Assembly (NCBI GenBank): GCA_041659685.1
Contig: JBAZXV010000002.1
Location: 39,527 to 103,526 of the forward strand
Source of the DNA: Parcubacteria group bacterium
GTDB lineage: Bacteria > Patescibacteriota > Minisyncoccia > Moranbacterales > UBA11712
Direction: 5' to 3'
Length of the DNA stretch: 64,000 nucleotides
This document shows positions 677 through 18,330 of this stretch, in pieces. Made by a program: the position numbers and the translations under genes. The notes under the pieces are model-generated. The model made no database searches. It was given only the letters and a program-made list of their open reading frames with translations, and was not told where the DNA came from. The stretch's first letter is position 1, and the number at the start of each line of letters is the position of its first letter.

Positions 677-740
677 TAATTACAGGAAGTAGGAAAAGTA
701 TGACCAAACAGTCATGCTTTCCAAAACAAAGGAACGTCTT
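677..740. repeat. Integrase-proximal att-like site, copy 1 (TAATTACAGGAAGTAGGAAAAGTATGACCAAACAGTCATGC...CCAAAACAAAGGAACG); homologous to 18272-18330
   Basis: About 60 bp, roughly 75% identical to the sequence downstream of the paralogous integrase at 16891-17814. It contains an imperfect inverted repeat ATGAC/GTCAT. Flanking sequence over the next ~150 bp is also related. Confidence 0.45.
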
Positions 741-859
741 GAAGCGCTCTTTTTTTGTAAATTTTTTATAGAAAGAGAATTAGGCACCCTATGGCATCAC
801 CCCCGCCGGCAGCTTCGGGGCAAAATTAGGGGACCCTATAGTCGTATCGCGCCAAAACA

Positions 860-894
860 AAAAAGGGCTTCCGCCCGCGCAAAAAATAAAAAAG
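860..894. repeat. Short A-rich repeat with GGGCTTCCGCCCGC hairpin core (copy 1); the same motif recurs at 2667-2706
   Basis: AAAACAAAAAAGG(G)CTTCCGCCCGC(G/T)CAAAAAA(T/C)AAAAAAG is present on both sides of gene 934-2532. A GGGC/GCCC stem flanked by A-runs could act as a weak bidirectional terminator. Confidence 0.4.
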
Positions 895-933
895 GTGCCA
901 CTACTATTTATTGCTAAAATTAAGCATCGCTAA

Positions 934-2532
934 CTAATCCGTATCTAGATGCGGATTGTCCTTGTCGCAATATGTTTCCATAGTGTCATATAACTTCATA
1001 ATTTTTTTCTCGTATGATTGAATTACCTCAAGCAAGGCTTCTCTGTCTGCACGGATTCCCTTTTTTAGTAGCTTGTAAAGATTGTCATTCAGACGTTTAT
1101 TAGATGGATAATAGAAGTTTTGCAATTCTCTCATTTTTTTAAAACTTGGCGTATAGATAACTTGGTTTCCCATTACCATTGAGAAACTCAACCGATACGT
1201 TCTCTTCATAAACTCCCTTGCAATGGAGGACAACTGGTTATCAGAAAGGGCTAACGCTTTATCTTTAAGCTTTTCTTTTATTTTTGCGACATAATCTTTA
1301 AAGTCCTTATTTAGCAGCCACGCCAAATTAAAACAGACTTTTGGCGTTTTTTCTTTTTTAAGCAAATCTTCTCCTAATATCAGCATGCCATCTGTAAGAC
1401 AAAAAAACCGTATTTTTTCGGATGAAGGCGCCATGAATTTCTCCTCCGGCAATATTTTGCTCTCTAAAAAAATGTTTGCATTTTTTGATAGTATGTCCAA
1501 TACAAGTTTGGCGAGCAGTTCTTCTTTCTTATTATTCTCTCGCATTATGACGATAACATTCAAATTAGAAACGCCAGGGATAAAATCATCCCGAAAAATG
1601 CTACCAGTAAGGTAAACCGCACGTAAATTCTCTTTAAAAATTTTAGTTAAAATCTTATCAGCTAATCCAATAATAAATCTATTCGCTGAAGAAATAGAAC
1701 TAAGGCTATATGAGCTTCTCTTTGCTCTAACTAAATCATCTAATTTTAGGTATTCATTTATCAATTCGGCGCCTTTTTTCAAAGTAGGAAATCTGAAGTA
1801 ATTGATTGTGACCCTCGCCACTTCATCTACATTTTTTTCTATGGCACCCAAAGTATCTTTCATTTTATTTGAACCATCAGTCTGCCACAGCTGCACATTC
1901 TCCTCCATTTTTTCTGCAAGTTTCTTTTTACCATATTCACTTAAATGACTTTCGAATTTTGGATCCAACATGGACTTGAAAGAACTAGCACGCATATAGC
2001 TTTCCACCTTTGGAAGCGGATTTTTATAGTGGTGATAATGCGTCCTCTTTTTAAGAGCTTTTGCTATTACTCCATTTTGAGTATTGTCATCCCATTCTCT
2101 CAATAAATTTAGTAGTTTGGGTATTTTTTCTACATTTGGACTCTTGAGTAATCCCCTGAGGGTAGTTTTATTTTCGATTTTTTTCTTCAAGTAGTCCTTC
2201 CTCGGTGTTGCGATCGCTCCGACCATTTGGCAAAGTTTATCTTTTAACTGATGAGTGAGATCAAGAAAGTAGCCTTGATGGTACATGATGTAATCTTCGC
2301 GACTAATGGAGTGGTCTTTCAAAAAAGCCTCCTCCGGTAAACTTGAAACAAAAGACGCCGCAGCCCTTAACTCCCGGATAATCCTTTCAATATCATAAAT
2401 GTATTGTTGCGCTATGTTCCAATGGGAATGACCTTTGGGCACACGCCCCATTGCATAATTTTGGGGCTGCCTTAAATCACCTTTAATGCTTACTAAAATA
2501 AGCGACAGCTTCAATTTTTCAAACCAATTCAT
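934..2532 (-). CDS. Hypothetical protein (532 aa); possible degenerate minimal-nucleotidyltransferase-like segment (GS-x10-SNLNV)
   Basis: Long uninterrupted ORF with coding-like composition. The LTGSIFRDDFIPGVSNLNVIVIM segment resembles the MNT GS...DxD motif but with Asn in place of Asp. No confident family assignment. Confidence 0.5.
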   Translation of the reverse strand: MNWFEKLKLSLILVSIKGDLRQPQNYAMGRVPKGHSHWNIAQQYIYDIERIIRELRAAASFVSSLPEEAFLKDHSISREDYIMYHQGYFLDLTHQLKDKLCQMVGAIATPRKDYLKKKIENKTTLRGLLKSPNVEKIPKLLNLLREWDDNTQNGVIAKALKKRTHYHHYKNPLPKVESYMRASSFKSMLDPKFESHLSEYGKKKLAEKMEENVQLWQTDGSNKMKDTLGAIEKNVDEVARVTINYFRFPTLKKGAELINEYLKLDDLVRAKRSSYSLSSISSANRFIIGLADKILTKIFKENLRAVYLTGSIFRDDFIPGVSNLNVIVIMRENNKKEELLAKLVLDILSKNANIFLESKILPEEKFMAPSSEKIRFFCLTDGMLILGEDLLKKEKTPKVCFNLAWLLNKDFKDYVAKIKEKLKDKALALSDNQLSSIAREFMKRTYRLSFSMVMGNQVIYTPSFKKMRELQNFYYPSNKRLNDNLYKLLKKGIRADREALLEVIQSYEKKIMKLYDTMETYCDKDNPHLDTD

Positions 2533-2666
2533 TGTTTTTATATAATGTTTCCATTGTAATAACGGATAACCCCTGGACTTAATATAGGCCTTATTGTGCC
2601 CAAAAACAAGCGTTTTCGGTCAAAATATAAGGTATTTTATTAGTTAAAACCGTAGAATAATCCCTA

Positions 2667-2706
2667 AAACAAAAAAGGCTTCCGCCCGCTCAAAAAACAA
2701 AAAAGT
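2667..2706. repeat. Second copy of the AAAAAAGGCTTCCGCCCGC-containing repeat
   Basis: Near-identical 40-bp match to 860-894. Confidence 0.4.
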
Positions 2707-2718
2707 AGTCTCTAACAA

Positions 2719-4314
2719 CTAATCATTAAAAGAAAAAGTTTTTATTGACTTATTTATTCTAGCCTTATTATCATCAGCATCCTTTCCTTTTTCGTATGTA
2801 CCTAAAATTCGATACAACTTATTATCATAAACCGTATAATAGACGCTATCACCTAACCCTCCGAATTCACCGTTTTGTTTTTCGACCGACCAAGCTGTTC
2901 TGTAATAAACAGATTTTTTGTTGTCTATAAAAGCAATGCCTTTCTCCATTATTTTATGATCTGGAAACTTACTCGAAAAATCTGAAACTATACCCTCAAG
3001 ATATTTTTTGGCATTCTCATTGGAAGGATGATTTAAATCAAGCGAAGATAGTTCGTCTTTTTCTTGGCCTAAAATGTCTTTTTTAACGTCCGAATTTTCA
3101 GGTGTTTTATATACTATGACTTTCACAGATGTCATGAAAGAATCTCTTTTTTCTGATTCTATTGAAAAGAAATCCTCTGTTTTGTCGTTTGTATAAAGTT
3201 TCCATTCAATTGGTAGTTTTATACTAAATTTATAATCATCGTTTTTATATATTTTAGCTTCATTATCAGCAAAATCCTCTCTTAGCAAATTTACCAAATC
3301 TTCAAACGGCTGAATTATGCCTAGGTTTTCATAATTGCCATGACTTAACCAAGTTGGAACACCAGCTAAACAAACTTGATTATTAATTTTGGAAACAGCA
3401 AGGCCGCCAGAATTTCCTGAATCTATCTTGGCATCCGTATAAAAATTACCTTCTTCATTTATTCCACTGACGAGCCCTGATGTAATAATCAAGTGATAAT
3501 CTCGAGCTTCATTTTCCAATGTTCCATCGCTACCAGTTTTAAATGCAGCACTTGGGAAACCAAAAATGTAAATTTTATTCCCAACCATTTTATCTTTTGG
3601 ACAAGAAGGATAATTCTTTAGCATCCTATCTCTTAGGGTGAAATCGGTAGTATAAGGTCTTTCCTGCATTTCACCTCCAATTTTTTCAGCATACTTAAGC
3701 AACGCTACATCAAATTTCCCGTCCAAAAAATGACTACTGTCGTTATAATTATAAGTCCTAATCACTTCTTTGCGATTAAAAGAAGCGACACAGGCGTTTA
3801 GGTCTGGATTAGATGAGGCGTCTTTTAATTCAGCCACATGTCCATTTGTTAAAATGTAAGTGTTTTTATAATTAAATTCTTTTTCGTCAAAAGACTTTCC
3901 TTCTAATATATTTTTATCCAAAAGAGTTCCCGAACCAAAGATTGAGCCAAAGGTATTGTCCCCCGATCTTTCTTTACTAAAGCAATGAAGCAAAACTAAA
4001 GATTTAGAAATTTTATCTATTTCTTGACTATTAAGCTCGCCAGTTTGGCTGCTAGGGGAATCATCCCTCGATATTTTTTCGGCACTATTGATTAAGCTAC
4101 TATTAAAAAAATTAATTGGATTTTTAATAAAATAAAGAGAAATTAACGCAACTATTATTATGATGAAAAGCCCTACTGCATACCAGACTATTTTTTTAAC
4201 CTCTCTTTTTCTATGATTATAAGGATTACTTCTGGAAGTTAAATAGCTGCCACAATATTTGCATTTTATTGCCTCGTCTTGAATTTCTTCTGCGCAAAAG
4301 GGGCATTGTTTCAT
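2719..4314 (-). CDS. Membrane-anchored trypsin-like (S1/chymotrypsin-fold) serine protease with N-terminal zinc-ribbon
   Basis: N-terminus [23 protein letters not shown] is a CxxC...CxxC zinc ribbon, followed by one TM helix (VGLFIIIIVALISLYFI). Catalytic-triad contexts are TNGHVAELK (His), DVALLKY (Asp) and GNSGGLAVS (Ser). Confidence 0.75.
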   Translation of the reverse strand: MKQCPFCAEEIQDEAIKCKYCGSYLTSRSNPYNHRKREVKKIVWYAVGLFIIIIVALISLYFIKNPINFFNSSLINSAEKISRDDSPSSQTGELNSQEIDKISKSLVLLHCFSKERSGDNTFGSIFGSGTLLDKNILEGKSFDEKEFNYKNTYILTNGHVAELKDASSNPDLNACVASFNRKEVIRTYNYNDSSHFLDGKFDVALLKYAEKIGGEMQERPYTTDFTLRDRMLKNYPSCPKDKMVGNKIYIFGFPSAAFKTGSDGTLENEARDYHLIITSGLVSGINEEGNFYTDAKIDSGNSGGLAVSKINNQVCLAGVPTWLSHGNYENLGIIQPFEDLVNLLREDFADNEAKIYKNDDYKFSIKLPIEWKLYTNDKTEDFFSIESEKRDSFMTSVKVIVYKTPENSDVKKDILGQEKDELSSLDLNHPSNENAKKYLEGIVSDFSSKFPDHKIMEKGIAFIDNKKSVYYRTAWSVEKQNGEFGGLGDSVYYTVYDNKLYRILGTYEKGKDADDNKARINKSIKTFSFND

Positions 4315-4361
4315 GGGTTTTCCTAGTTAAAGTAAAATACTGCCTCGCTATTTGCTAAAAA

Positions 4362-5168
4362 TTACCAATATCTCGTTGCCTCGATAGCTTTCAAGTCCGC
4401 ATCATATTTTGCTCTTAATGCATCGCAGTCTATTGTAAACTGATTTCGAACCGCTTCGGCTCCACCGGAAAATGTCATGCCCCTATTGTTAAGATCCTCC
4501 ATTGTTGCGTCATAGGCTATCTGCAGTTTTCTTAGATCTCTATTATAATCATTTTCTAACTCCACAATGGATAAATTATAATCTGCTTTATCAAGTTCCA
4601 GCATTTTCGCGGCGTAAGTTGCGGCCTCTTCAGCTTCCCTTAATCTTTTTGCTTCGTCTTGCCTTGCTTGTTCAGCCGCCAAATCCGCTAAGCGCTTCGC
4701 TAAATCTGCTTGTATTTTTGCAAATTCGTCATTCCCCGAAGCAATGATAGGAGCAGTCGGACTGGCGATGATTTTTCCAGTTCTTTTCACTACTTTCGAA
4801 AGTGTTTGCGTAATAGTTCCGTTAGTCGCCTGCACACTCACCGTATTCACCGCCGAATCGAGAGGCACATTATATTTAAATGCGCCTTTTTTATTTGCTG
4901 TCAGGGTTGTTTTCTCTTGTCCGTTCACGCTGATTATCACCGTAAAGTACGCGCCCGTTTTCCCTGTTAGCTTAATTGAAGATTTTTTTGTTTTCTTTTT
5001 TACGCTAACTTTTAATTTAACGGCCTTTGCTTTCTTTTTAAGCGCATTGTAGGTTTTTGAATTTGCTGTGGATGCGCTGGAACTTGGAATCGAAATCGCC
5101 AAGCCGAATAAAAAAACAGCCAAAAAGACTGCGAGGGGAAGGCATACTTTTTTACGAGAGATTTTCAT
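4362..5168 (-). CDS. Secreted/lipoprotein-like hypothetical protein with C-terminal coiled coil
   Basis: N-terminal signal peptide MKISRKKVCLPLAVFLAVFLFGLAISIPSSSAS. Lys-rich beta-rich middle region. The C-terminal region is coiled-coil-like (AEQARQDEAKRLREAEEA). Confidence 0.55.
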   Translation of the reverse strand: MKISRKKVCLPLAVFLAVFLFGLAISIPSSSASTANSKTYNALKKKAKAVKLKVSVKKKTKKSSIKLTGKTGAYFTVIISVNGQEKTTLTANKKGAFKYNVPLDSAVNTVSVQATNGTITQTLSKVVKRTGKIIASPTAPIIASGNDEFAKIQADLAKRLADLAAEQARQDEAKRLREAEEAATYAAKMLELDKADYNLSIVELENDYNRDLRKLQIAYDATMEDLNNRGMTFSGGAEAVRNQFTIDCDALRAKYDADLKAIEATRYW

Positions 5169-5350
5169 TTTAATTATTTTAAGGATAAAAAAAGGACAAC
5201 CCTACTGGTTGTCGGACCCAACTAGGCAGGTTATGCCCAATTGTTTTAAGCAAGGTTGCCCATTTTCTGGCACAACCCTACTTTTGCTCGATAAAGAAAA
5301 GTTTATTTAGTTGGATCCGACACTTAAAAAATACCACCTAAATCACAAAA

Positions 5351-6199
5351 ATGCAACTTTTTGAGTTGATTTTTTCCCTTATTTACGGTAAAATAAGAGA
5401 AATTAAGATTAAAATGATGGATATAGTTGAGGTCAAAGAAAAAAAATGGGCGATGCTACTTGTTTTAGCCAGAATGTTAGATTATGAAATATCTGAAGAG
5501 AATGCAATTCTCCCTTTAATTTTAATCAGAGGTGAAACACGCAAGATTAAGAAAAATGTTACTGTAGATGACATAACCTACGAGATTGAAAATAATCTTT
5601 TAGAAAAAATTGTATTTGAATTACAAGTAGAAGGTATAATTCATCCTCCCTTGCTAACTCATAAAGGTTATTCATACTCAATTAGAAATAGAGAAAAGAT
5701 AGGACAAAGAATGGCAGAGCTTAATTCAATGGAGATTACATTGGATAAAATCCGGGATCGCTATGTCAAGAATGAAGCCATTGATAATAAAAAAAGACTT
5801 AAATCAATTCATCTTGTGACTAAATCTGTGGCCGTAGAGAATGTGATATTTCTGGTACTTGACGAAAGATTTGAAATGCCTATTCGTTTTGATACAAAAA
5901 ATCGCAAGGGAGAAGATACTACTATAAAAAAACTCCACGATATTGCGTATTTCGTGAACGCTCCGGGAAAGAGAGTCGGTTATAGCGAAAGGCTTGCTGA
6001 TAATATCAATAATGGGATTTTTAAAAAAAGACCAATTAAGGATTATATGAAAACGAATAAATTTGAAAAACCGACACTCGTGCAAAAATCAGAAGATGGA
6101 AATATTTTAGTTTTAAAAAATGAAATACTGATTAAAACAATGTTAATAAATGCTGTTCCAACGCAATATCAATCGTTGTATAAAGACAAGATAAAATAA
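5351..6199 (+). CDS. Hypothetical protein (first gene of a replication/integration module)
   Basis: 282-aa ORF followed by a rho-independent terminator. No recognisable motif. Confidence 0.45.
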   Translation: MQLFELIFSLIYGKIREIKIKMMDIVEVKEKKWAMLLVLARMLDYEISEENAILPLILIRGETRKIKKNVTVDDITYEIENNLLEKIVFELQVEGIIHPPLLTHKGYSYSIRNREKIGQRMAELNSMEITLDKIRDRYVKNEAIDNKKRLKSIHLVTKSVAVENVIFLVLDERFEMPIRFDTKNRKGEDTTIKKLHDIAYFVNAPGKRVGYSERLADNINNGIFKKRPIKDYMKTNKFEKPTLVQKSEDGNILVLKNEILIKTMLINAVPTQYQSLYKDKIK

Positions 6200-6247
6200 T
6201 CGATTTTCCGAATATCGTCCGAGAGAAAGCAGGTTAATAGTCAGAAT

Positions 6248-6275
6248 CACCTCGAAAAGGTGGTTTTTTTGTTTT
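6248..6275 (+). terminator. Rho-independent terminator (CACCTCGAAAAGGTGG followed by a T-run)
   Basis: 4-bp GC stem CACC/GGTG with a GAAAAG loop and TTTTTTTGTTTTG tail, downstream of gene 5351-6199. Confidence 0.5.
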
Positions 6276-6342
6276 GTTATCCGACCGCTCGGATAGATAT
6301 GATTTATGCAGATAGTCAGTTAATCACTCAAATTTAAATTAT

Positions 6343-6564
6343 ATGAAAAAAATAAAAGATCTAAACCAAGCTGCCTTCTTAAAGTTGAAAAAGCTCAAAC
6401 TACTTGGAGAATTGGAATGGTCTGATGATGTCGCTTACTTTGTTTTCGAAGATAATGGCCAAGCTGATCAACTAATTGAAACTTACATTAATAGCGAAGC
6501 TACTGGAAATCTCAAGGAATTTGCTGAAATTCAAAGAAGTTTGAAGCAAATGTTATTTAAATAA
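6343..6564 (+). CDS. Small hypothetical protein (73 aa)
   Basis: ORF in the same orientation and spacing as the surrounding module. No motif. Confidence 0.3.
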   Translation: MKKIKDLNQAAFLKLKKLKLLGELEWSDDVAYFVFEDNGQADQLIETYINSEATGNLKEFAEIQRSLKQMLFK

Positions 6565-6589
6565 CTCTTAAAATTAATATTTAAAAAAG

Positions 6590-6883
6590 ATGAAAATTTA
6601 TAATGAAAACCAAATAATAGAAAATCTAAAGAAATGTCCTCATTTCGATTTTTGTTCGCGTAATTTTTGTTCTCTAGATTTGGAGCTTCATTTTAGAAGC
6701 GGACGGGAACAGGATAAGTGTCGGTATATGAGATCGCCTCGATTAACAAAAGTGAAAGATAAGGAATTTATCACGGGAGGAGCCACTATGTCAGACGCGG
6801 TACTTAATTTCGTGCCTAGCGAGAATTTGGAGCGCTTAAACAAAGCTTCTCAAGAGCGTTGGCGAGAACTTAACGAAAATTAA
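6590..6883 (+). CDS. Small hypothetical Cys-containing protein (97 aa)
   Basis: Its stop abuts the start of the next gene at 6885, suggesting operon organisation. Confidence 0.35.
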   Translation: MKIYNENQIIENLKKCPHFDFCSRNFCSLDLELHFRSGREQDKCRYMRSPRLTKVKDKEFITGGATMSDAVLNFVPSENLERLNKASQERWRELNEN

Positions 6884-6884
6884 T

Positions 6885-7448
6885 ATGAATATGAAATATC
6901 AACCGCCAAAATTTAGAGATAAAGAACTTTTGGAAATATTCCCAGAGGCTCGAGAAATAATTCCCGAAAAAATAGGGGAATGGAAAATTGAGCTACGCAT
7001 GAATGAGCAGATTATTGAAGATTGCTTGGCTTCTATATATGGACAGGCAACAGATGATTTTTCGATCTGGTTTTCTGAAGAAGCGGCAAAAACTTTCTTG
7101 ATGCCTCCGATCATGGAGGCCGAAAAACACATTTTGCGATTAAAGAGGATGCTATCTATTTTCAGCCCAAGTGGGAAGAGGCTGGAACGCTGGCAGGATA
7201 AAATGGAAATCGCGCGACAGTACCCGATTTATGAGATCGCAAGCGGCAACCTTACGCTAAAACAGTCCGGGGATAAATTTTTGTCCCTTTGCCCATTCCA
7301 CGATGAAAAGCACGCTAGTTTTTTTATCTTTACCAAAACTAACACATTTCATTGTTTCGGATGTCAGGAACACGGCGATGTAATCAAATTAACAATGTAT
7401 TTGCACGGAATCAACTTCAAAGAGGCCGTGAGAATGCTACAAAATTAA
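6885..7448 (+). CDS. DNA primase-type CHC2 zinc-finger protein (phage/plasmid primase N-terminal domain)
   Basis: CPFHDEKHASFFIFTKTNTFHCFGCQEHGDVIKL matches the DnaG/phage-primase zf-CHC2 signature CPFH..PSF......CFGCG..GDVI. Confidence 0.6.
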   Translation: MNMKYQPPKFRDKELLEIFPEAREIIPEKIGEWKIELRMNEQIIEDCLASIYGQATDDFSIWFSEEAAKTFLMPPIMEAEKHILRLKRMLSIFSPSGKRLERWQDKMEIARQYPIYEIASGNLTLKQSGDKFLSLCPFHDEKHASFFIFTKTNTFHCFGCQEHGDVIKLTMYLHGINFKEAVRMLQN

Positions 7449-7449
7449 T

Positions 7450-8517
7450 ATGAATATTGAAGAAAAAAAGTTTGAAGAGATTAAAAATGAGGTCAAAAGC
7501 AAAGAGCATTTGAAGGACACTTTCAAGGCGATCAGCTTGAACCAGCTTTACTCCATGGAATTTCCAGCGAGCAAGTGGGTAATTGAAAAACTCATCCCAC
7601 ATGAAAGTATAACTATTATTTCCGGCGCTCCGGCGAGCTTCAAGTCATGGCTAATCCTAAGAATGGCTTTAGATATTGCCAAGGGAGAAAGCCTACTGGG
7701 TCAATTCAAATGCGAGAAATACAAAGTTCTAATTATCGATGAAGAAAATCATTTGCGTTTAGTCCAAGATAGGTTAAAGCGTTTGGGAGCTGAAGACAAT
7801 CTTCCTATCTTCTTTTTATCTCAAAAAGGATTTTTAGTTTCCAAAAAGGGAATGATCGAAAATGTGCTAGAGATATGCGGACAAGAAGAAATCGATGTTA
7901 TTTTTATTGATTCACTAGTTAGGATCAGTAAAGCGGAAGAAAATGATGCTTCCCAAATGTCAGAAGTTTTCAGAGGCATTAAGCAATTTTGCCAGAATGG
8001 TAAAACAGTAATTATTACTCATCACGAACGAAAAGAAGGCGCGGTAAAAGGTACTGCGCAAGCTAGATTAAGGGGATCTTCAGATATACAAGCCTCTGTT
8101 GATTGCCATTTGGCACTTCGAAGAGATAAAAATGATAAAACTAAATTAGTGGTAGAGCAAGCCAAGCTTCGAACAGATGAAGAAGCCGAATCATTTGAAG
8201 TGGCTGTTCAGAAGGTTGAAGGAAAAACAGAGTTTAGCTTTCTCGGCATGTATTCAAAAGACAAAAGCAAAATGGAGACAGCTAAAGAAATTATCCAATC
8301 TGTTTTGGAAGAAGAACAAGATGGGCTGTGCAGAAAAGAAATATTCCAGCGCGTGAGGGAGATTGAGAACATTAATGATAAGAGCATCAGAGAGGCCATC
8401 GAATACCTTTTGAGTGAGAAAATTATACTGGAAAAGAAAGGAGAAGGAAACACAAAAATATGTTATCTCGCAAAGTTTTATCAAGAAGAAATAGATCCGC
8501 AAGAAGCCTTAATCTAA
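7450..8517 (+). CDS. RecA-like AAA_25/RepA-DnaB-type helicase ATPase (mobile-element replicative helicase)
   Basis: Walker A-like IISGAPASFKSWLILRMALDIAKG and Walker B VLIIDEENH. The architecture is typical of phage P4-like or integrative-element primase-helicase pairs. Its start overlaps the stop of the upstream primase zinc-finger gene. Confidence 0.55.
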   Translation: MNIEEKKFEEIKNEVKSKEHLKDTFKAISLNQLYSMEFPASKWVIEKLIPHESITIISGAPASFKSWLILRMALDIAKGESLLGQFKCEKYKVLIIDEENHLRLVQDRLKRLGAEDNLPIFFLSQKGFLVSKKGMIENVLEICGQEEIDVIFIDSLVRISKAEENDASQMSEVFRGIKQFCQNGKTVIITHHERKEGAVKGTAQARLRGSSDIQASVDCHLALRRDKNDKTKLVVEQAKLRTDEEAESFEVAVQKVEGKTEFSFLGMYSKDKSKMETAKEIIQSVLEEEQDGLCRKEIFQRVREIENINDKSIREAIEYLLSEKIILEKKGEGNTKICYLAKFYQEEIDPQEALI

Positions 8518-8568
8518 AACGGCAAAACGGCAGTATATATATACATTGCCAAATTGCCGATTTAAAAA

Positions 8569-9507: not shown

Positions 9508-9625
9508 TAAAAGGATCAACTCAATAGGCATTTCTGAAAAACAAGCTTGTAATAGGCTTGTTTTGCTTTACTTTGCAGCTTTTTAGCAGTAAGATAAGTT
9601 TATATAAGGGATTATAGGATAATCT

Positions 9626-11179: not shown

Positions 11180-11966
11180 TATGACTAAAAAGGGAAACGA
11201 AAGGATAGAGAAGTTAATAAAGGAAAGCGGAAATAATTTTCATTATCAGGTTGTAAATTTTTTACGTGAAAAGGCTTGGACTGTTTTAGTGAGTCCATAC
11301 TATAATGATTCTTTATCTGATAAATCCAAAGAGATTGATATAGTTGCAGAAAAGATTATCAACATTAAGGATAAGGTATTCGGAACAACTTTCGGTCAGC
11401 TTAAAATACGTTTTTTCATTGAATGTAAATACATAAATAATGATATTGCATTTTGGTTTGATGAAAGGGATAAAAATAAGGCTCGAGAATTAGTTATAAA
11501 GTCAACACCCTTAAAAGAGAATAATAGTTTTACGGACAAACACCATTATTTGGTTGATCAACCGGTGGCGAAACTATTTAGCTCAAATGCTAATAAGGAG
11601 GATGTAATATATAAAGCTCTGTCTCAAAGCCTTAATTCAATGATATATTTTGAAGGTAATCGTATTATTGTTGGCGAAGATTTTAGATCGGAAAATTATT
11701 ACACAATAAAATATCCAATAATTCTGTGCAATGGTTTTTCAAAATTTTACAAAGTAGAAGGAAGTGATTATTCACCCATTGATTATAATTTCCAATTGGA
11801 AGTGAACTACGCATACTTAGATAAAAATAAAAATAGCAGAAATGATTATCATTTGATAGATATTATTGACTTCAACAAACTGGATAATTTCTTAATAGAT
11901 TTAGAAAATGCAGACATTTCTGCGATTAGCGAAGTGCTTGCTTGGGATTGGAAAAACAATAATTAA
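11160..11966 (+). CDS. Hypothetical protein inserted between mod and res; possible PD-(D/E)xK nuclease-like core
   Basis: Overlaps the mod stop, and its own stop lies 6 nt before the res start. EIDIVAEK...FFIECKY resembles a D...E-x-K nuclease motif. Very AT-rich. The real start is probably M at 11181 (MTKKGNER). Confidence 0.4.
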   Translation: MRLRFIDMTKKGNERIEKLIKESGNNFHYQVVNFLREKAWTVLVSPYYNDSLSDKSKEIDIVAEKIINIKDKVFGTTFGQLKIRFFIECKYINNDIAFWFDERDKNKARELVIKSTPLKENNSFTDKHHYLVDQPVAKLFSSNANKEDVIYKALSQSLNSMIYFEGNRIIVGEDFRSENYYTIKYPIILCNGFSKFYKVEGSDYSPIDYNFQLEVNYAYLDKNKNSRNDYHLIDIIDFNKLDNFLIDLENADISAISEVLAWDWKNNN

Positions 11967-11971
11967 CCTAT

Positions 11972-14236
11972 ATGCAACTCAAAAAATATCAACAAAGGAC
12001 AATTGAAAAAGTTCAGGATTATTTGAAAGAACTTGCGAAGGCTGAGCCGAAATATGCTTTTATGGGATTGACTAATCAGCCATATAATAGCGACTTCTTC
12101 GGAGAAGTACCCTTTGTTTGCATAAAAATTCCAACTGGTGGTGGAAAGACGCTGGTCGGTTGTCATGTTGTCCGAGAAATTATGCAAACAATTCTTAAGC
12201 ATAAGATGGAACGGGGAATTGTGATGTGGTTTGTCCCTTCAGAAGCAATCAAGAGCCAAACACTTCGGAAATTCAAAGATCGCACGGATTGGCATAGGAG
12301 AATTTTGGATGAATCCTTTGAAAACGGAGTGAGGATTTTTTCCAATGAAGAGGCTTTGCGAATTAGGAAAGCGGACGTGAAGGACAATTTATGCATTATC
12401 ATTTCCAGCCTGGACGCTTTCCGAAAAGAAAAGAAGTTGCAGAATAAATACAAAGTCTATCAGGAAAATGGGGCATTGCTGGATCACTTTGAAAATATTC
12501 AAGAAAATGACGTTTTGGAAAAGGACGAGGAGAAAACGGTTATTAACTCACTAGCGAACGTGGTGAGGATGGATAACCCGCTTGTGGTGGTGGACGAGGG
12601 GCATAAAACAAAAACCCAGCTTTCCATTGATTTCTTGAAAGACTTGAATCCCAGTTTTATCATCGAGTACACGGCCACACCAAGAGGCGGAAGCAATATT
12701 TTGGTTGATATTTCTGCTTCCGAACTCAAAGAGGAACAAATGGTTAAAATTCCGATTGTGCTGGAAAGCGTCACGCAATGGCAGAATGCCGTGTCGGAAG
12801 GAATCGCTAAAAGGAAAGAATTGGAAAAAGAAGCCAAAAAACTCAAAGGTGAATATATCCGTCCGATAGTGCTATTGCAAGCCCAGCCGAAAAGCACGAC
12901 AAGCAATAATATTACAGTGGAACAGCTCAAGGAATTTTTACTAAATGCCAAGATAGCCGAAGACGAGATCGCCATCAAAACATCCGAAAGGAATGACATT
13001 GAGGGGGTGGATTTATTCAGCCGGAAATGCAAAATCCGCTATATTATTACGGTCAATGCTTTGGCCGAAGGATGGGATTGCTCCTTTGCCTATGTTTTAG
13101 TATCAGTTGCCAATTTGGGAGCTAAAATCGCCGTAGAGCAGATTATAGGGCGCATTATACGTATGCCAGAAGCAAAGAAAAAAGAGATCGAAGATTTAAA
13201 CCGCTCTTATATTTTTGCGTCAGCCCGGAACTTCAACGAATCAGCCACACAAATTATTTCCGGTTTGGAACACAATGGATACAGCCGGTTTGATCTAATC
13301 GCTTCAAAGCAAATTGGCGAAGCATATGAGTTAGAAGTTGAGCGTACAGTTAATAAAGATTTTTATGCTTCCATGATGAGCTTTGGGAACAAAATGCTAA
13401 CTTTTGAGGAATTGATAGGCGAAGATTTTGAACTGGCCAAACAGAATGCCGAATTTGACTTTGAAAATCACTATGACAATGACGGGCGGGCAATTATTGA
13501 TATTAGGGAGGATAAATGGATCAAGGGTAAACAGCAGACGTTGAAACTAACCATTCACGACAAAAATTTTTCCAAGGAGGAGCTAATTCAATGGCTGGAC
13601 AAGAGATTACGATTTATTTTGCTAGATAAAAGCGACAAAGTTGGATTTATCACGAAGGCCTTGGATTATCAATTAAAACACCGGTCTCTATTAGAGCTTT
13701 CAATTAATCGTTTTATCTTTTTGGAAAAACTCAATGAAGTGATAAATGGGATCTTGGAGGCATATGCAAAAAAGCGGTTTGATAAATTTATTGCTAGTAA
13801 GAAAATTTCAGTCAAGACATTTGATAAATTTCCAAAGACAATAATTTTGAATCAAGAAATACCTCAAGAGTTCAATAAAAGCTACTACAAGAAAATAGAC
13901 AAACTTAATAAAGAAGAATTAGCAATGATAGACAGGCTAGATTTGCAAACTTTGCCTAATATTGATTTCTGGATTCGCAACAGGGAAAAGAAAGACCCGT
14001 TTTATATTCAGGGCTGGCGGAAAGGAAAATTCTATCCAGACTTCATCGCTATTACCAAGAAAGGAAATATTGTCGCATTGGAATGGAAGGGAGAAGACAG
14101 AATTAGCAATGAAGACACGGGCTACAAAGTTTTGATTGGCGAACAATGGGCGAAATTAGGAAAAGGAAAATCGTATTTCTTTTTGGTGCATAATAAAAAT
14201 ATAGAGGAAGTGTTAAGCGGTTTGAAAAAATTATAG
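11972..14236 (+). CDS. res: Type III restriction enzyme Res subunit (SF2 helicase plus C-terminal PD-ExK endonuclease)
   Basis: Walker A IKIPTGGGKTLVGCH, DEAH-box VVVDEGHKT, helicase motif VI-like QIIGRIIRM. C-terminal FYPDFIAITKKGNIVALEWKGED is a PD...ExK motif. Confidence 0.85.
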   Translation: MQLKKYQQRTIEKVQDYLKELAKAEPKYAFMGLTNQPYNSDFFGEVPFVCIKIPTGGGKTLVGCHVVREIMQTILKHKMERGIVMWFVPSEAIKSQTLRKFKDRTDWHRRILDESFENGVRIFSNEEALRIRKADVKDNLCIIISSLDAFRKEKKLQNKYKVYQENGALLDHFENIQENDVLEKDEEKTVINSLANVVRMDNPLVVVDEGHKTKTQLSIDFLKDLNPSFIIEYTATPRGGSNILVDISASELKEEQMVKIPIVLESVTQWQNAVSEGIAKRKELEKEAKKLKGEYIRPIVLLQAQPKSTTSNNITVEQLKEFLLNAKIAEDEIAIKTSERNDIEGVDLFSRKCKIRYIITVNALAEGWDCSFAYVLVSVANLGAKIAVEQIIGRIIRMPEAKKKEIEDLNRSYIFASARNFNESATQIISGLEHNGYSRFDLIASKQIGEAYELEVERTVNKDFYASMMSFGNKMLTFEELIGEDFELAKQNAEFDFENHYDNDGRAIIDIREDKWIKGKQQTLKLTIHDKNFSKEELIQWLDKRLRFILLDKSDKVGFITKALDYQLKHRSLLELSINRFIFLEKLNEVINGILEAYAKKRFDKFIASKKISVKTFDKFPKTIILNQEIPQEFNKSYYKKIDKLNKEELAMIDRLDLQTLPNIDFWIRNREKKDPFYIQGWRKGKFYPDFIAITKKGNIVALEWKGEDRISNEDTGYKVLIGEQWAKLGKGKSYFFLVHNKNIEEVLSGLKKL

Positions 14237-14256
14237 GCATTTTATCAAAAGATAAC

Positions 14257-14886
14257 TTGAATAAACCAGAACATAAAAAAAGATTTGAAGAGTTGTTCAG
14301 ACTATTTACAGAAGCCCATTTATGCTTTTTTGTATGGAGGGGATTGCAGAAGAAAGAATACGAGAAATACTGGAAAAGAGATTCAAATTTTTGGAATGCC
14401 GTAATTTATTCATTACAAAGAACTTGGTTTCAAGCACTTGCTAATATTTATGAAGATTCGTCATATAGTAAAAAGAATAAAGTTATATCCGTTTACTCCC
14501 TTGTTTTGTTTCAAGAGGATGAGAAAAGAAGATCGGAATTAGAGAATATTTTGGATTCCAATAAAGTAGTTATTGAAAATATATCAAAACTTCGCCATCA
14601 TCAGTTATCTCATAATAATGCGAACTTCTTGTTAAATCCTAAATTAATGCTTCAGAAGTTTCCAATTAAACATGGTGATATTGAAAGACTTTTGCAATCA
14701 ACCGAAGAATTGCTTCGCTATCTCCATCCAGAAAATAATCATAGTTTTGCAATTTCAGGATTTGATGAAAAATGCGAAAAAGATTCCGGTAATATAATGA
14801 AAAAAATAGAATATTATCTTAAAAGAGAGAGGGAACACCAAGAAGAGATTCATTCAGGTAAAAAACCATATTCTGATTTTCCGTAG
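14257..14886 (+). CDS. Hypothetical protein; possible HEPN/AbiU2-like abortive-infection protein
   Basis: Immediately downstream of the Type III R-M system. Contains R-x5-H (KLRHHQLSHNNAN), compatible with a HEPN Rx4-6H motif. Weak. Confidence 0.35.
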   Translation: MNKPEHKKRFEELFRLFTEAHLCFFVWRGLQKKEYEKYWKRDSNFWNAVIYSLQRTWFQALANIYEDSSYSKKNKVISVYSLVLFQEDEKRRSELENILDSNKVVIENISKLRHHQLSHNNANFLLNPKLMLQKFPIKHGDIERLLQSTEELLRYLHPENNHSFAISGFDEKCEKDSGNIMKKIEYYLKREREHQEEIHSGKKPYSDFP

Positions 14887-15026
14887 CAATTGATATTCCC
14901 TATTGTAATTTCTTAAAAAGTGTAGTAGAATGTAAGTGTAAATTAACAACTTAATTCAGCTTTACATAAACAAGTTGATTCTTTGATCAACTTTTGCGAA
15001 AGTCCTGCTTCTTTTCTCCCGGAGAA

Positions 15027-15132
15027 CACCTCCTTTCTAGGGAGATACGGTGATATAGTGATATTCGTATCACTACAAACCTATACGGTCGTTAATAGAT
15101 TCAAGGCATACAGGGCAACCGCAAAAATTTGC
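15027..15132 (+). repeat. R1 element copy a (conserved ends CACCTCCTTTCTAGGGAGATACGGTG ... GGCAACCGCAAAAATTTGC; internal hairpin TAGTGATA-TTCG-TATCACTA)
   Basis: Member of a five-copy family (38811-38946, 42133-42261, 44184-44350, partial 50606-50626). The hairpin sequences differ between copies but complementarity is maintained. Confidence 0.6.
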
Positions 15133-15206
15133 AATTACAAGCTGAAAAATACCTCTTTGGTAATTTTTGGGCAAGAAGACTTACAGTTTCCGAATTGTAG
15201 GTCTTT

Positions 15207-16295
15207 TTGTTTATGAACGCCGAAAACAACATCTCCCCAAGAAGAGCTAGTTCCTACGCACATACGGATAGGGAGACTTGCTACATTTCCGACCATTTGG
15301 AAGGGTTTATGGAATACGGTGAGTATGAGCTGAATCTCGCGAAAATCACGATGGTCAAATACAAGGACGGGCTGATACATTTCACGAAGTATATCGGCGA
15401 CAAGGATGTGCGCGACATCACGCAGGCGGACATCATCAAGCTGAAACGCCTTATGCGGGAAAAGGGAGTGGGAGCATTGAGAGTCGGGACGGTTATTTGG
15501 GCTTTGCGAAGTTTTATGAATTATTGCAACAATTTTTTGGGCGTGCGGACTATAAACCCGAAATCAATAAGACCCCCGCGTGCCCCGAAGAGAGAAGTGA
15601 TTTTCCTCACGAAAGAGGAAGTCGGGCAGTTCGTCGATTCAATCGACACCTCAAAATTGATGGGGCTTCGTTTCAGGGCGTTGGTGGAAATCATTCTTGG
15701 GACGGGAATGAGAATCAGCGAAGTCTTGTCGCTCAACAGAAAAAACATCCCCTGGGAAAGCAAGGAAGCGAAAATCATCGGAAAAGGCAACAAGGAACGC
15801 GCGGTTTTCTTTACGGACAGGGCTTTAACTTGGATTCGGCGGTATTTGGAAAAAAGGTTTGATTCCAACGAGGCGGTGTTCGCGACGGAAGACGGGATGA
15901 GAAGGCTGAAACTGGACGACATATCGAAGTTTTTCATCGCGGCGCGGAAGAAGGCGGGAATGGACAAGCTCATCACGCCCCACATTTTGCGCCACACCGT
16001 TGCGACGAATTTGGTTTTCAATGGCTGTCCGCTTCCGCACGTCAAGGAGATTTTGGGGCACGAACTGCTGGATACGACTTGCAAATACTACCTTGGCGTG
16101 GACAAGGAACAAGCGAAAAAAGCTCATCGCGAATATCTAACTTTTAACACTTGGGAATCAAGACCAAGAAATGACCAACAACTACGAGAAAAAAGAGAAC
16201 GGCAAGAACGCGACCGGCAGGCCGCCGAAGTTCAGTTCGCCCGAAGAAATGGAAAGGATGGGAATGGAGCATATCGAGGAATGCAGGAAGAATGA
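15207..16295 (+). CDS. Tyrosine recombinase / integrase (GC-rich, likely foreign)
   Basis: RISEVLSLNRKNI (box I) and HILRHTVATNLVFNGCPLPHVKEILGHELLDTTCKYY (box II with catalytic Tyr). About 50% GC against a ~33% background. The 3' end probably lies before 16295 and overlaps the next ORF. Confidence 0.75.
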   Translation: MFMNAENNISPRRASSYAHTDRETCYISDHLEGFMEYGEYELNLAKITMVKYKDGLIHFTKYIGDKDVRDITQADIIKLKRLMREKGVGALRVGTVIWALRSFMNYCNNFLGVRTINPKSIRPPRAPKREVIFLTKEEVGQFVDSIDTSKLMGLRFRALVEIILGTGMRISEVLSLNRKNIPWESKEAKIIGKGNKERAVFFTDRALTWIRRYLEKRFDSNEAVFATEDGMRRLKLDDISKFFIAARKKAGMDKLITPHILRHTVATNLVFNGCPLPHVKEILGHELLDTTCKYYLGVDKEQAKKAHREYLTFNTWESRPRNDQQLREKRERQERDRQAAEVQFARRNGKDGNGAYRGMQEE

Positions 16296-16596
16296 CAAAC
16301 CTATCACCATTACGGGAATTTGCCTAAAACTGGACACAACCCGCCAGACTTTGCTGGATTATGAGAGGAAGAACGAGTTTTCTGACACGGTAAAAAGGCT
16401 TAAACTGCACGCCGAGAACTATGCCGAGGAAACTTTATACAACAAGAACGGGCGGGCGGTAGTCGGCGCGATTTTCGCGCTCAAGAATTTCGGCTGGAGC
16501 GACAAAATGGAATTTGAAAACAGCTACAAGCCTCAAATTATGACCGAGGAAGAACGGGAGAAAATGCGCGAGAGAATAAGGAATTTTGATGAGTAG
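16171..16596 (+). CDS. Phage terminase small subunit-like protein (prophage remnant)
   Basis: GRPPKFSSPEEMERMGMEHIEECRKNDKPITITGICLKLDTTRQTLLDYE...AVVGAIFALKNFGWSDK matches the conserved TerS pattern (GRP.kf....., HTH, ..FaLKn.GW.DK). No large terminase or structural genes follow. Confidence 0.55.
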   Translation: MTNNYEKKENGKNATGRPPKFSSPEEMERMGMEHIEECRKNDKPITITGICLKLDTTRQTLLDYERKNEFSDTVKRLKLHAENYAEETLYNKNGRAVVGAIFALKNFGWSDKMEFENSYKPQIMTEEEREKMRERIRNFDE

Positions 16597-16842
16597 AACT
16601 TTGAAAACGAAAGGCAAGTTGGTTGTGTTTTTGGTTTTTTGGCGTATAATATAGATACAATTGAATGTCCTAACCCTAGCGGATTTTCCCTAGGTATGGC
16701 GCATAATCCACTGCAACATAGAGACGGCTTTCTGTCTCGTTATCGCGTTGCAGTGGTTGCCGCCCGAAAGGGTGGTAGGTGAGTTCCGAAAGGCACTTAC
16801 CGACGAGCGGGAAGCCTTTTGTGTTTGTTGGAGGCTATGACG

Positions 16843-16888
16843 CCGTTATAACATTGCTTTCCGTTATAACATTTCACGTTATAACAGC
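16843..16888 (+). promoter_or_regulatory. Three direct repeats of CGTTATAACA (17-bp phasing) immediately upstream of the integrase start; candidate arm-type/operator sites
   Basis: CCGTTATAACATTGCTTTCCGTTATAACATTTCACGTTATAACAGCC. Each repeat has a palindromic GTTATAAC core. The integrase ATG is at 16891. Confidence 0.4.
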
Positions 16889-16890
16889 CT

Positions 16891-17814
16891 ATGGACATAA
16901 AATCATTAGAAACTATGCAAGACATAGATTTTCTCCAATATACGGCGAAGCGGATTTTTGATTTGCTGGATATAAGCGAAAACACCCGCGAAGACTATAA
17001 GTCGCGGGTTTATTTGTATTTGCGATTTGTTCAAGAAAACGGATACAACTTTAACAGCTTTCTCGACTTCAAAAGGGAATTGGAAAAAAGAACGGATTTG
17101 AGCACGGCGACAAAAAACAAATACTTGGCGACGGCAAAGATATTTCTCAAGGAACTGAATCGGCAAGGAATTATTCCCGCTGACATTACGCAAAATATAA
17201 AAACCTTCAAGCAAAGCAAGAAGCATAAACGGGAAGGCTTGAATGATGGTGAAATAAAATTGCTGGTTGATAGGTTCAAGCAGTTGCCAGCCACATCCGA
17301 AAGCACCCGTCTCAAAGCTATTTTAAGTCTGTTGATTTTTCAGGGGCTTCGCCAGATTGAAATTGTAAGGCTGGATATAAAGGATTTAGACTTCACGGCA
17401 AAGATGGCTTTCGTGCTAGGCAAAGGAAGGGACGACAAGGAATCGATAGATTTGCATCCTGAAACAATCAGGAATCTCAAGGAATACCTCAAAACAAACA
17501 AAATAGCGGACGGCGCGTTATTCACAAATAGAAGCAACAATGGAAAGGGTAAAAGAATCACGACCCGTGCTTTACGCGGTATAATCAAAACCATCCTTAA
17601 AGATTTGAAAATTGACAAGACTACGCACGGCTTCCGCCATTATTTCACTTCGAAGCTCATTGAGACTTACAAGGGCGATTTGCTGGAAGTTGCCCGCTAT
17701 ACCCGCCATAAGAGCCTTGAAATGTTGCAAGTCTACAATGACAACATCAAGCGCAAAGCCGATTTGCCGAGATATTATGAGACTTTCGGGGGCATAAAGT
17801 TATCAAGCGATTAG
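16891..17814 (+). CDS. Tyrosine recombinase XerC/D-like integrase (intact paralog of the pseudogene at 1-657)
   Basis: LRQIEIVRLDIKDLDF (box I region) and HGFRHYFTSKLIETYKGDLLEVARYTRHKSLEMLQVYND (box II with catalytic Tyr). About 70% amino-acid identity to the fragment at the window start. Confidence 0.85.
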   Translation: MDIKSLETMQDIDFLQYTAKRIFDLLDISENTREDYKSRVYLYLRFVQENGYNFNSFLDFKRELEKRTDLSTATKNKYLATAKIFLKELNRQGIIPADITQNIKTFKQSKKHKREGLNDGEIKLLVDRFKQLPATSESTRLKAILSLLIFQGLRQIEIVRLDIKDLDFTAKMAFVLGKGRDDKESIDLHPETIRNLKEYLKTNKIADGALFTNRSNNGKGKRITTRALRGIIKTILKDLKIDKTTHGFRHYFTSKLIETYKGDLLEVARYTRHKSLEMLQVYNDNIKRKADLPRYYETFGGIKLSSD

Positions 17815-17840
17815 TTTGAAATAAAAAGTAAAATAAAAAT

Positions 17841-18242
17841 ATGTTCTACGAAACATTCAGTTGGTGGGGATTGTTAGTTGTTTGCGTTGCGCTGGGATAT
17901 TCGCAGCAAATCGGAGCTTACGGCAGGGGACGGAAAAGCACGAAAATAGAAAACGTTTCCAATTTGCTGATTGTTATCGTATTCGTTGTCTCTTTTTTCA
18001 TAAGCGGTGTTTGGGGCGGAGTATTTCTTGTTTTGGCTTTCATTGTGGTAAATTCGACCATCACAAAATATATTATAAAGGCGACATTCCAAAAATCAAT
18101 CCGCTATACGCCGTTGGATAGGGAGGAAGTGCAAAGGCAGGTTATGGATGAGTTTATGGAGAAAAACAAAAATGTCGGCGATGGGTTCAGTATCGTGGAT
18201 GTTGAGAGGGAAGTAAGGAGGAGATTGAACATCAAAGATTGA
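17841..18242 (+). CDS. Small integral membrane protein (about 3 TM), hypothetical
   Basis: Hydrophobic helices WWGLLVVCVALGY, LLIVIVFVVSFFISGVWGGVFLVLAFIVV. Confidence 0.4.
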   Translation: MFYETFSWWGLLVVCVALGYSQQIGAYGRGRKSTKIENVSNLLIVIVFVVSFFISGVWGGVFLVLAFIVVNSTITKYIIKATFQKSIRYTPLDREEVQRQVMDEFMEKNKNVGDGFSIVDVEREVRRRLNIKD

Positions 18243-18271
18243 ACGGATTTCAGCCTTGAACTTCCGATAAC

Positions 18272-18330
18272 TATAATTACAGGAAATAGAAAAATATGAC
18301 CAAATGGTCATATCCAAAACACGGAAAAAC
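18272..18330. repeat. Integrase-proximal att-like site, copy 2, with perfect palindrome ATATGACC-AAAT-GGTCATAT (18294-18313)
   Basis: Homologous to 677-740. 8-bp perfect inverted arms separated by 4 bp. Confidence 0.5.

Follow-up and report, generated by a model that had tools for sequence, protein, structure and literature searches.

A probable tandem array of elements at an inferred 16S rRNA 3' end in a Parcubacteria bacterium, and an Xer-like integrase with its own site inside the units

Two integrase genes and their shared surroundings

We analysed a 64-kb stretch of DNA, here called the window, from a Parcubacteria group bacterium (GenBank assembly GCA_041659685.1, contig JBAZXV010000002.1, positions 39,527 to 103,526 of the forward strand). 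Its left part carries two related integrase genes, each followed by the same short sequence, together with repeats, restriction-modification (R-M) genes and further cargo (Table 1). Position numbers are those of the window, and labels of the type L001-L134 denote the genome and metagenome contigs with which it was compared. IntB is the family of the intact integrase at 16891-17814; IntA is a separate integrase type, encoded directly after copies of the 16S rRNA trailer. An earlier sequence-only reading had taken the two sequences behind the IntB genes as the ends of an integrative element of about 17.6 kb, or of tandem elements.

The left integrase gene, IntB0*, runs into the left edge of the window. 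Its frame 1 comprises the C-terminal 218 codons, with a sole in-frame TGA at 160-162, in keeping with the decay already ascribed to it. It aligns with residues 87-299 of IntB1 at 65% identity (139/213 aa, E=1e-108), so the pairing of a fragment with an intact paralog stands, at a somewhat lower identity than the ~70% first given. The IntB1 motifs LRQIE, GKGRDDK, HGFRHY, TRHKS and QVY fit the usual tyrosine-recombinase pattern and would hold its catalytic residues.

The DNA behind the two genes is homologous, as had been noticed: the best local alignment pairs 640-728 with 18234-18321 at a score of 69, against a maximum of 32 in 200 shuffles. The sequence-only reading had singled out a perfect palindrome in the right copy as an Xer/dif-like or att core. 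The palindrome is present, but it was ruled out as the functional core, since no homologous IntB elsewhere has it beside the gene and, taken by itself, its frequency is not below chance: allowing two mismatches, ATGACC-N4-GGTCAT occurs twice in the window against 1.33 expected. The conserved core is instead the neighbouring 13-6-13 inverted repeat to its left. What survives of the proposal is that the repeated sequence contains a recombinase site of the Xer/dif or lox type. A 39-nt degenerate pattern of this site has a chance expectation of zero in the window. Before site 2, the open reading frame orf133 has a weak NCBIfam match, below cutoff, to Na+/H+ antiporter subunit G, and is followed at 18234-18254 by a relic resembling the IntB 3' end.

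Contig L056, from the Logan collection, extends the left copy. It is 100% identical to window 3425..1 and runs 1776 nt further left, where IntB0* is preceded by trailer copy 0, the integrase IntA0 and a TerS-like gene. Both units therefore share a 3.2-kb backbone of a 16S trailer copy, IntA, the TerS-like gene, IntB and the site, with amino acid identities between paralogs of 56% (IntA), 67% (TerS-like) and 65% (IntB). Only the right backbone has a 294-nt stretch with a LOOT RNA, and the 133-aa orf133. Homology reaches about 3.2 kb to the left and about 40-45 nt to the right of each IntB site. Since the backbones are only 56-67% identical, they are divergent representatives of a single element family rather than the product of a recent duplication. 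The two IntB sites lie about 3.2 kb inside units U1 and U2, not at element ends.

Table 1. Features of the window and of its leftward extension on contig L056 (aa, amino acids; ORF, open reading frame; HTH, helix-turn-helix)
Feature	Position	Strand	Description
Presumed 16S rRNA gene	left of window		L056 stops inside trailer copy 0
Unit U1	-1.77 kb to 15026 (~16.8 kb)		IntA0, TerS-like gene, IntB0*, site 1, cargo
Trailer copy 0	-1.77 kb, left end of L056		L056 ends within the copy
IntB0*	1..657	+	pseudogene, 3' two-thirds of an Xer-like tyrosine recombinase; N-terminus left of window, on L056
IntB site 1	661..692	+	CAACTTCTCATAA-TCCTAA-TTACAGGAAGTAG; 26/28 informative positions as in family consensus; starts 3 nt past IntB0* stop
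Degenerate palindrome copy	698..717 (matching core 700-715)	+	ATGAC-N6-GTCAT; not kept in other loci
U1 minus-strand cargo	934..5168	-	532-aa protein, 531-aa protein (zinc ribbon + trypsin-like protease), 268-aa protein
U1 replication/integration block	5351..9507	+	282-aa protein, DUF5659, 97-aa protein, CHC2 zinc finger, AAA_25 helicase, third-type integrase (8569-9507)
U1 defence cargo	9626..14886	+	Type III R-M: Mod 9626-11179, 268-aa ORF, Res 11972-14236; HEPN AbiU2 14257-14886
Candidate 16S-end att core	15014..15046	+	U1/U2 junction: TTCTCCCGGAGAA - CACCTCC - TTTCTAGGGAGAT
Unit U2	15027-38810		IntA1, TerS-like gene, IntB1, site 2, cargo, integrase 37312-38307
Trailer copy 1	15027..15170	+	nhmmer E=8e-29; left boundary of U2; no 16S gene upstream
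IntA1	15207..16295	+	Xer-like tyrosine integrase; likely start ATG 15213; starts 40-190 nt past trailer copy 1
TerS-like HTH protein (GP3_package)	16171..16596	+	intact, 141 aa; 67% identical to L056 paralog
LOOT RNA (RF03000)	16667..16797	+	58.2 bits against gathering score 46.4; between TerS-like gene and IntB1
IntB1	16891..17814	+	intact 307-aa Xer-like tyrosine recombinase; Pfam Phage_integrase E=3.8e-22
orf133	17841..18242	+	133-aa ORF between IntB1 and site 2; no Pfam match
IntB site 2	18258..18289	+	GAACTTCCGATAA-CTATAA-TTACAGGAAATAG; 25/28 informative positions as in consensus
Perfect 8+4+8 palindrome	18294..18313	+	ATATGACC-AAAT-GGTCATAT; window-specific
U2 cargo	18477..37299	+	response-regulator-domain protein, Type I R-M operon, hydrolases, methyltransferase, YceG, HTH protein
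Type I R-M operon	19314-29606	+	hsdM 19314, hsdS 21709, hsdR 26128, YgjP-like peptidase 29046
Integrase, U2 right end	37312..38307	+	ends 504 nt before trailer copy 2
Unit U3	38811-42132		hisG and others; no integrase
Trailer copy 2	38811..38965	+	nhmmer E=1.3e-27; U2/U3 boundary; no 16S gene upstream
Unit U4	42133-44237		AAA_18 + Fic; no integrase
Trailer copy 3	42133..42332	+	starts within TTTCTAGGGAG; nhmmer E=2e-23; U3/U4 boundary
Trailer copy 4	44238..44395	+	113-nt stretch 98% identical to 42149-42261
Array end (trailer copy 4)	44238-44395		trailer copy + terminator-like hairpin; probably right end of array
Flank	from 44509		Na+/H+ exchanger

Copies of the 16S rRNA 3' end and the integrase behind them

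The repeat that opens each unit was identified through its first 24 nt, CACCTCCTTTCTAGGGAGATACGG, which we scanned against metagenomes. The scan returned 83 stretches with 86 copies, 64 of them directly behind a genuine 16S 3' end (...GTCGTAACAAGG...GGATCACCTCCTTTCT) and 19 without a 16S gene upstream. The end of the Rfam small-subunit (SSU) rRNA match coincides with the motif in L074 (complete 16S at 956-2483), L089 and L063. Because it stands directly behind genuine 16S ends, the motif consists of the last 12 nt of 16S rRNA (CACCTCCTTTCT) and the 3' trailer. Behind the complete 16S gene of L074 the trailer is 91% identical to window 15024-15149. The motif itself has no Rfam match at E<=1; a hisG riboswitch or leader, or another known RNA, was discarded as its identity on this result and that of the metagenome scan.

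Each unit brings about 130-190 nt of trailer, plus a terminator. A terminator-like hairpin follows trailer copy 1 up to about 15207, and the hairpin variant of copy 2 is identical to that of genuine 16S trailers in L063, L070, L080 and L121. Copies 3 and 4 were found with a hidden Markov model (HMM) of the trailer. Intron matches lie next to or within the 16S region in three contigs. Two are of group I, one in L061 at 184-558 (overlapping the 3' part of the 16S match) and one in L129 at 8611-9361, where the 16S-end motif is separated from the Rfam SSU match by it. The third, in L120 at 258-371, is a group II fragment ahead of the 16S end. If the last exon comes after an intron, the sequence of the 16S 3' end is AACATGAACAAGG...

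At the U1/U2 junction (15014-15046), the heptamer CACCTCC, which is the anti-Shine-Dalgarno sequence, stands between the inverted arms TCTCCC and GGGAGA, and the arrangement ATCTCCC...GGGAGAT recurs in 11 of the 19 metagenome copies that lack a 16S gene. This sequence pattern suggests a 13-7-13 core in which the heptamer would be the overlap where crossover takes place.

The integrase tied to these copies is IntA. Homologs 46-83% identical to IntA0 stand behind a 16S gene and trailer in L061, L074, L077, L089, L092, L116, L119, L131 and L134. Counted separately, 9/47 16S-linked copies have an integrase starting less than 2 kb behind them, against 0/19 copies without 16S; the nine include L063, which has a split, more distant IntA relative. 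The 47 are the 16S-linked copies followed by 1.5 kb or more of sequence; the other 38 of them lack an integrase over the 2 kb behind the copy, and may represent the unoccupied state, though integrase-less units also occur in arrays. In six contigs a 16S-linked copy is joined, 1.6-8 kb further on, by a second copy that has no 16S. Besides IntA, the 8-kb insert of L089 encodes an R-M system, a LexA-like repressor, a rolling-circle Rep, a LOOT RNA and another integrase, which is related to that at 8569-9507. Homologs of the integrase at 8569-9507 closely precede 16S-less trailer copies in L064, L087 and L089. The 80 16S-trailer loci hold neither IntB nor an IntB site. IntA and the TerS-like gene were in turn ruled out as general IntB partners, as neither is linked to IntB in L001-L055. 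Past the point where it ceases to resemble IntA0, IntA1 continues for 49 codons, and it shares 125 nt with the TerS-like gene, probably through a lost stop codon or a mis-set start.

Some units are very short. In L093 (840-2445, 1.6 kb) and L120 (1037-3440, 2.4 kb), integrase-less Fic/DOC units whose proteins are 92% identical lie between trailer copies, and U4 (42133-44395 with the closing trailer copy) encodes a 31%-identical Fic protein as well as an AAA_18 protein, flanked by 113-nt repeats of 98% identity. These Fic units look like cassettes mobilised in trans. Such short units behind 16S, each with one copy of the recombination sequence, recall integrons. Unlike integrons, their repeats are 16S trailer copies rather than attC hairpins, and IntA lies inside the unit rather than divergent from an attI; there is neither an IntI-type integrase nor an attC-type cassette array.

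A closer parallel is offered by islands at tRNA and tmRNA 3' ends (P4-type integrases; Islander/TIGER-type islands). As in these, the integrase lies beside attL, here adjoining the 16S-side junction; direct repeats of the RNA-gene 3' end, here of 16S, flank the inserts; a replacement 3' end is carried; and tandem arrays form at one hot spot. The differences are the target, which is the last 12 nt of 16S (anti-Shine-Dalgarno sequence included) plus trailer, the simple Xer-like build of IntA, and the lack of an integrase in some units.

We read the DNA from 1 to about 44.4 kb, with somewhat better than even confidence, as four or more units lined up in tandem at the very 3' end of an inferred 16S gene, with IntB as an internal resolution or cointegration module. 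That gene is presumed just left of the window, and the IntA encoded directly behind the trailer copy would have placed the units there by site-specific recombination. Each would bring the last 12 nt of 16S, a trailer and a terminator; because every unit has its own 16S-end copy, the rRNA gene would keep a complete 3' end after insertion, like the targets of tRNA islands. The sequence-only reading was right that insertions had accumulated in tandem, but the att site, the integrase and the boundaries are different ones: 16S-end repeats and IntA.

The IntB site and its possible roles

A scan with IntB1, limited to one genome per species, found relatives at 55 loci, 54 of them true family members. 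Identity to IntB1 is 42-71%, apart from one distant outlier, and is 55-68% across unrelated phyla. Most loci are in metagenome-assembled genomes (MAGs) of candidate phyla (Patescibacteria); others are binned as Nitrospira, Brocadiaceae, Zixibacteria, Omnitrophota, Atribacteria, Actinomycetota, Bacteroidota, gammaproteobacterial, deltaproteobacterial and Nanoarchaeota. A conserved 32-mer lies 3' of IntB, on the same strand and often less than 100 nt away, in about 44/54 true family loci. Its consensus, CTACTTCCCATAA-NNNTAA-TTACAGGAAGTAG, is a 13-6-13 inverted repeat that has about zero matches in shuffled window sequence.

Among 39 sites, positions 1-8 pair with 25-32 and 11-13 with 20-22, with covariation; none of 500 shuffles reaches the observed score, and pairing is seen in register 0 only. 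Positions 9-10 and the 6-bp spacer are asymmetric. Across phyla the 32-mer is conserved more strongly than its own flanks. Homology between loci typically ends at the edges of the site, which thus marks mosaic junctions. A layout of this kind characterises core sites of the lox or dif type, and the 32-mers are very probably genuine recombination sites cognate to IntB, lying here inside elements integrated at the 16S end. A telomere resolvase was considered and dropped, given that the site lacks dyad symmetry at its centre and that IntB is a small enzyme of Xer-like type.

In Saccharibacteria L031-L039 a conserved block of about 1.85 kb, from about -1810 to +36 of the site, comprises an MgsA_C-like 200-aa gene, IntB and the site. 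Both flanks of the block vary by genome, and a large serine recombinase lies at variable distance rightward.

One proposal is that IntB inserted a 17.6-kb element, or tandem elements, at a resident IntB site, with the two sites of the window as attL and attR or as hybrid att sites formed in succession; this is unlikely, as is the variant in which IntB made a cointegrate of two related plasmids. The sites are in direct orientation, each with its own IntB gene, the interval holds genes typical of circular IntB plasmids (Type III R-M, primase/helicase), a lox-like site can in principle integrate into another copy, and homology between loci breaks at the site edges. Tyrosine recombinases, however, normally need identical overlap regions, and the centres TCCTAA and CTATAA differ at 3/6 positions (the arms at 4). 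Both sites are embedded in the 3.2-kb backbones, with homology continuing to the right of each, and are thus internal rather than terminal. Neither the window nor L056 has a third or orphan site, and other loci have a single one. U3, U4 and the six metagenome contigs are bounded by trailer repeats, not IntB sites, and no alternative junction occurs among the contigs found. Linear gene order alone cannot separate tandem insertion by IntA from cointegration by IntB, because both predict backbone, cargo, backbone, cargo. What separates them is the spacer mismatch, the lack of a third site, the trailer-bounded units without IntB and the absence of IntB from trailer loci.

A lower probability still goes to the site as an attI-like capture point, with IntB running an integron-like platform for passenger genes. 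Variable DNA does lie beside the site, genes often start 5-30 nt past it, and different right flanks stand behind the same Saccharibacteria block. Passengers also lie between IntB and the site in seven loci (the window, with orf133, and L002, L014, L019, L030, L040 and L046). Yet in the roughly 44 site-carrying IntB loci we found no second site or half-site within +-10 kb, nor a repeated attC-like element near any site. Integron-integrase models give IntB 30 bits (and IntA 85) against a cutoff of 265, and the left breakpoint of the orf133 insertion falls inside the IntB 3' end, not at the site centre.

Some IntB loci are on plasmid-like carriers. Three Saccharibacteria-binned contigs of about 11.6-15 kb (L027, L041, L043) bridge one another's ends and so represent circular molecules, although a test of single contigs for circularity by terminal overlap was negative. 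They carry ParA, MerR-like, primase, DnaB/AAA_25 helicase, Type III R-M and TerS-like HTH genes with one IntB and one site, in the order IntB, site, merR, parA. In about 8-11 loci the site stands ahead of MerR-like or ParA genes. L047 closes via an IS200/IS605-like insertion that splits IntB at residue 149; this insertion sequence, with the TnpA C-terminus and subterminal hairpins (1-245 and 8425-8558), spans both contig ends. Among 2.9 million viral contigs one has an IntB site (L057, which resembles L047), and INPHARED phages gave no IntB match. The best PLSDB match, 32% identical, is on small Streptococcus plasmids. To our knowledge there are no well-described plasmids in candidate-phyla bacteria.

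IntB could also serve the host itself, as the single-recombinase Xer/dif system for chromosome dimer resolution in candidate phyla, duplicated in this genome; we regard this as very improbable. The enzyme is Xer-like, with XerA, XerC and XerD as best NCBIfam models and XerA, an XerC-like protein, XerH and XerD as best PDB sequence matches (a phage integrase, Gp33, is also among them, and Cre is absent). Its site adjoins the gene as in XerS and XerH systems, and several Saccharibacteria keep the IntB-plus-site block. All NCBIfam scores are nevertheless far below the family cutoffs (bits/cutoff: XerA 111.7/220, XerC 87/335, XerD 82/330, XerS 65/267). The window has two copies 17.6 kb apart in mobile DNA, one a pseudogene, and one MAG holds two IntB modules (L009, L013). 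Across the 27 loci with usable flanks there is no consistent switch of GC skew or gene orientation at the site, and in the window both continue unchanged across site 2. The lack of a skew switch and the two modules in one MAG make a chromosomal dif role unlikely; the 55-68% identity of IntB across unrelated phyla and its presence on circular plasmid-like contigs likewise weigh against it. Hardly credible is an ordinary segmental duplication in which the conserved stretch is a drifting, functionless 3' untranslated region: a longer repeat including the integrase genes and more does exist, as the sequence-only reading had allowed for, but its copies are diverged elements of just 56-67% amino acid identity with different cargo, and the 32-mer is kept beside IntB across phyla, above its flanks and with covarying arms.

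Compared with single-recombinase Xer systems (XerS/difSL, XerH/difH, archaeal XerA/dif), IntB is alike in being a small Xer-like enzyme with XerA as best match, in having its site immediately beside the gene and in the 6-bp centre; a dif site has an 11-6-11 layout with a 6-bp centre. It differs in that the site is not at a skew switch or terminus, can be multi-copy rather than single on a chromosome, is mobile and crosses phyla, and in that the enzyme stays below the Xer thresholds. Cre/loxP of phage-plasmid P1 (and Dre/rox, VCre/VloxP) provides the same architecture: one recombinase gene beside a single site with 13-bp inverted arms and a short asymmetric centre, no evident arm-type accessory sites, and circular plasmid-like replicons with partition genes nearby. 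IntB departs from Cre in sequence family, being closest to Xer, in its 6-bp centre (NNNTAA) rather than 8 bp, and in occurring also inside chromosomally integrated elements. The modules called IMEX (integrative mobile elements exploiting Xer) or pdif share the link of segments to Xer-type sites and mosaic junctions at sites, but each IntB site has its own recombinase gene and loci have one site, not flanking pairs.

By analogy with these systems, IntB and its site would form a self-contained module, in which a small Xer-like recombinase acts on its own 13-6-13 site downstream. The most likely course is that of Cre/loxP or XerS/difSL: with its arms bound by two IntB monomers, a site would synapse with an identical partner, and strand exchange would take place in the 6-bp centre. 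Multimers of a circular plasmid-like form would be resolved in this way, and replicons with matching sites could be joined or split. On anatomy and context this resolution role is the best supported, and we assign it tentatively, at a little less than even confidence.

Smyshlyaev et al. (2021; PMC8138268) described an Xer-related 'Cand' subgroup from candidate phyla, without giving a site; a chromosomal role could draw on it, and it is the closest mention we found. The literature searched, with incomplete coverage, contains no description of a 16S-end integration target or of the IntB site. An IntA family inserting at the 16S end has apparently not been described before, and IntB is a widespread but undescribed recombinase with genuine sites.

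Limits of the array reading, its cargo and its meaning

Several points weigh against reading the left 44.4 kb as an array built at a 16S end. No 16S gene is seen beside the window, as L056 stops inside trailer copy 0. Look-ups with exact proteins returned L056, L058 and L059 only: L056 reproduces the left arrangement, L058 and L059 that of IntB1 and site 2, and no empty site, excised circle or alternative junction of this genome was among them. U2 contains YceG and other housekeeping-like genes and has integrases at both ends, and may be a composite of several elements with lost junctions. The resolution role is argued from analogy and context, and many IntB loci sit in large chromosomal contigs of diverse phyla without recognisable plasmid genes. 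The Saccharibacteria block of MgsA_C-like gene, IntB and site, with its variable flanks, would also fit an insertion hot spot. Finally, IntB0* is inactive, so site 1 may be a relic.

Pfam-type annotation left the earlier cargo list essentially correct, including the higher GC content of the integrase at 15207-16295; one entry changes, the TerS gene (GP3_package), which had been called a remnant and is intact. In U1 the 532-aa protein (934-2532, -), whose gene lies on the opposite strand just past site 1, matches nothing in Pfam or NCBIfam. By eye it has a nucleotidyltransferase-like GS...D.D motif, and a homolog lies between IntB and the site in L019 at 10997-12481 (29% over 507 aa). An 81%-identical repeat (852-903 / 2663-2714), which contains GGGCTTCCGCCC between A/T runs, lies 3' of both minus-strand genes of about 530 aa and probably serves each of them as a terminator. 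A further repeat, inverted, 83 nt long and 77% complementary, connects 4239-4321, at the 5' end of the protease gene (2719-4314, -), with 29606-29688, at the start of the ORF 29613-29927. This ORF clusters with L019 ORFs resembling the zinc-ribbon N-terminus of the protease, and the repeat probably reflects related N-terminal coding segments.

In U2, between hsdS and hsdR of the Type I R-M operon, lie genes for a PIN_12 protein, a 287-aa protein, a weak cyclase-like match (24946-25656) and a PycTM effector (25659-26120), the last two forming a Pycsar-like pair. The LOOT RNA also occurs elsewhere, in L042 (624-755, directly after IntB), in L046 (20033-20159, -, near IntB) and in L089 (4167-4287); the one paper checked states no function for it. 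U3 has hisG (39075-39971) and three small genes between 16S-trailer copies, and this lone hisG may be cargo rather than chromosomal flank.

More generally, we put at even chances the proposal that candidate-phyla bacteria host IntA-family integrases which insert their own elements, and in trans integrase-less units such as the Fic units, at the anti-Shine-Dalgarno end of 16S genes. Every insert would supply a new 16S trailer, and arrays of defence and plasmid genes would accumulate behind the rRNA gene; some of the elements would carry the portable, lox-like IntB pair. The window also illustrates that a conserved site beside an integrase need not be an element boundary. Partial copies of the 16S end could mislead rRNA annotation, binning and assembly, and contigs break there, as L056 does. 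IntB and its 32-bp site form a compact pair, in which the site arms vary together with the enzyme, of the kind that has been turned into Cre-like genome-engineering tools; if the reading is right, they would be a new portable recombinase-site pair present in many phyla and on small circular plasmids. The 16S rRNA 3' end is among the most conserved bacterial sequences, and integrases attaching there could potentially work in a very broad range of hosts, with rDNA-targeting elements (those inserting into ribosomal DNA) as a eukaryotic parallel. Insertion at this end would also explain the hot spots of foreign DNA behind rRNA genes in candidate phyla, where mobile elements and plasmids are poorly known.

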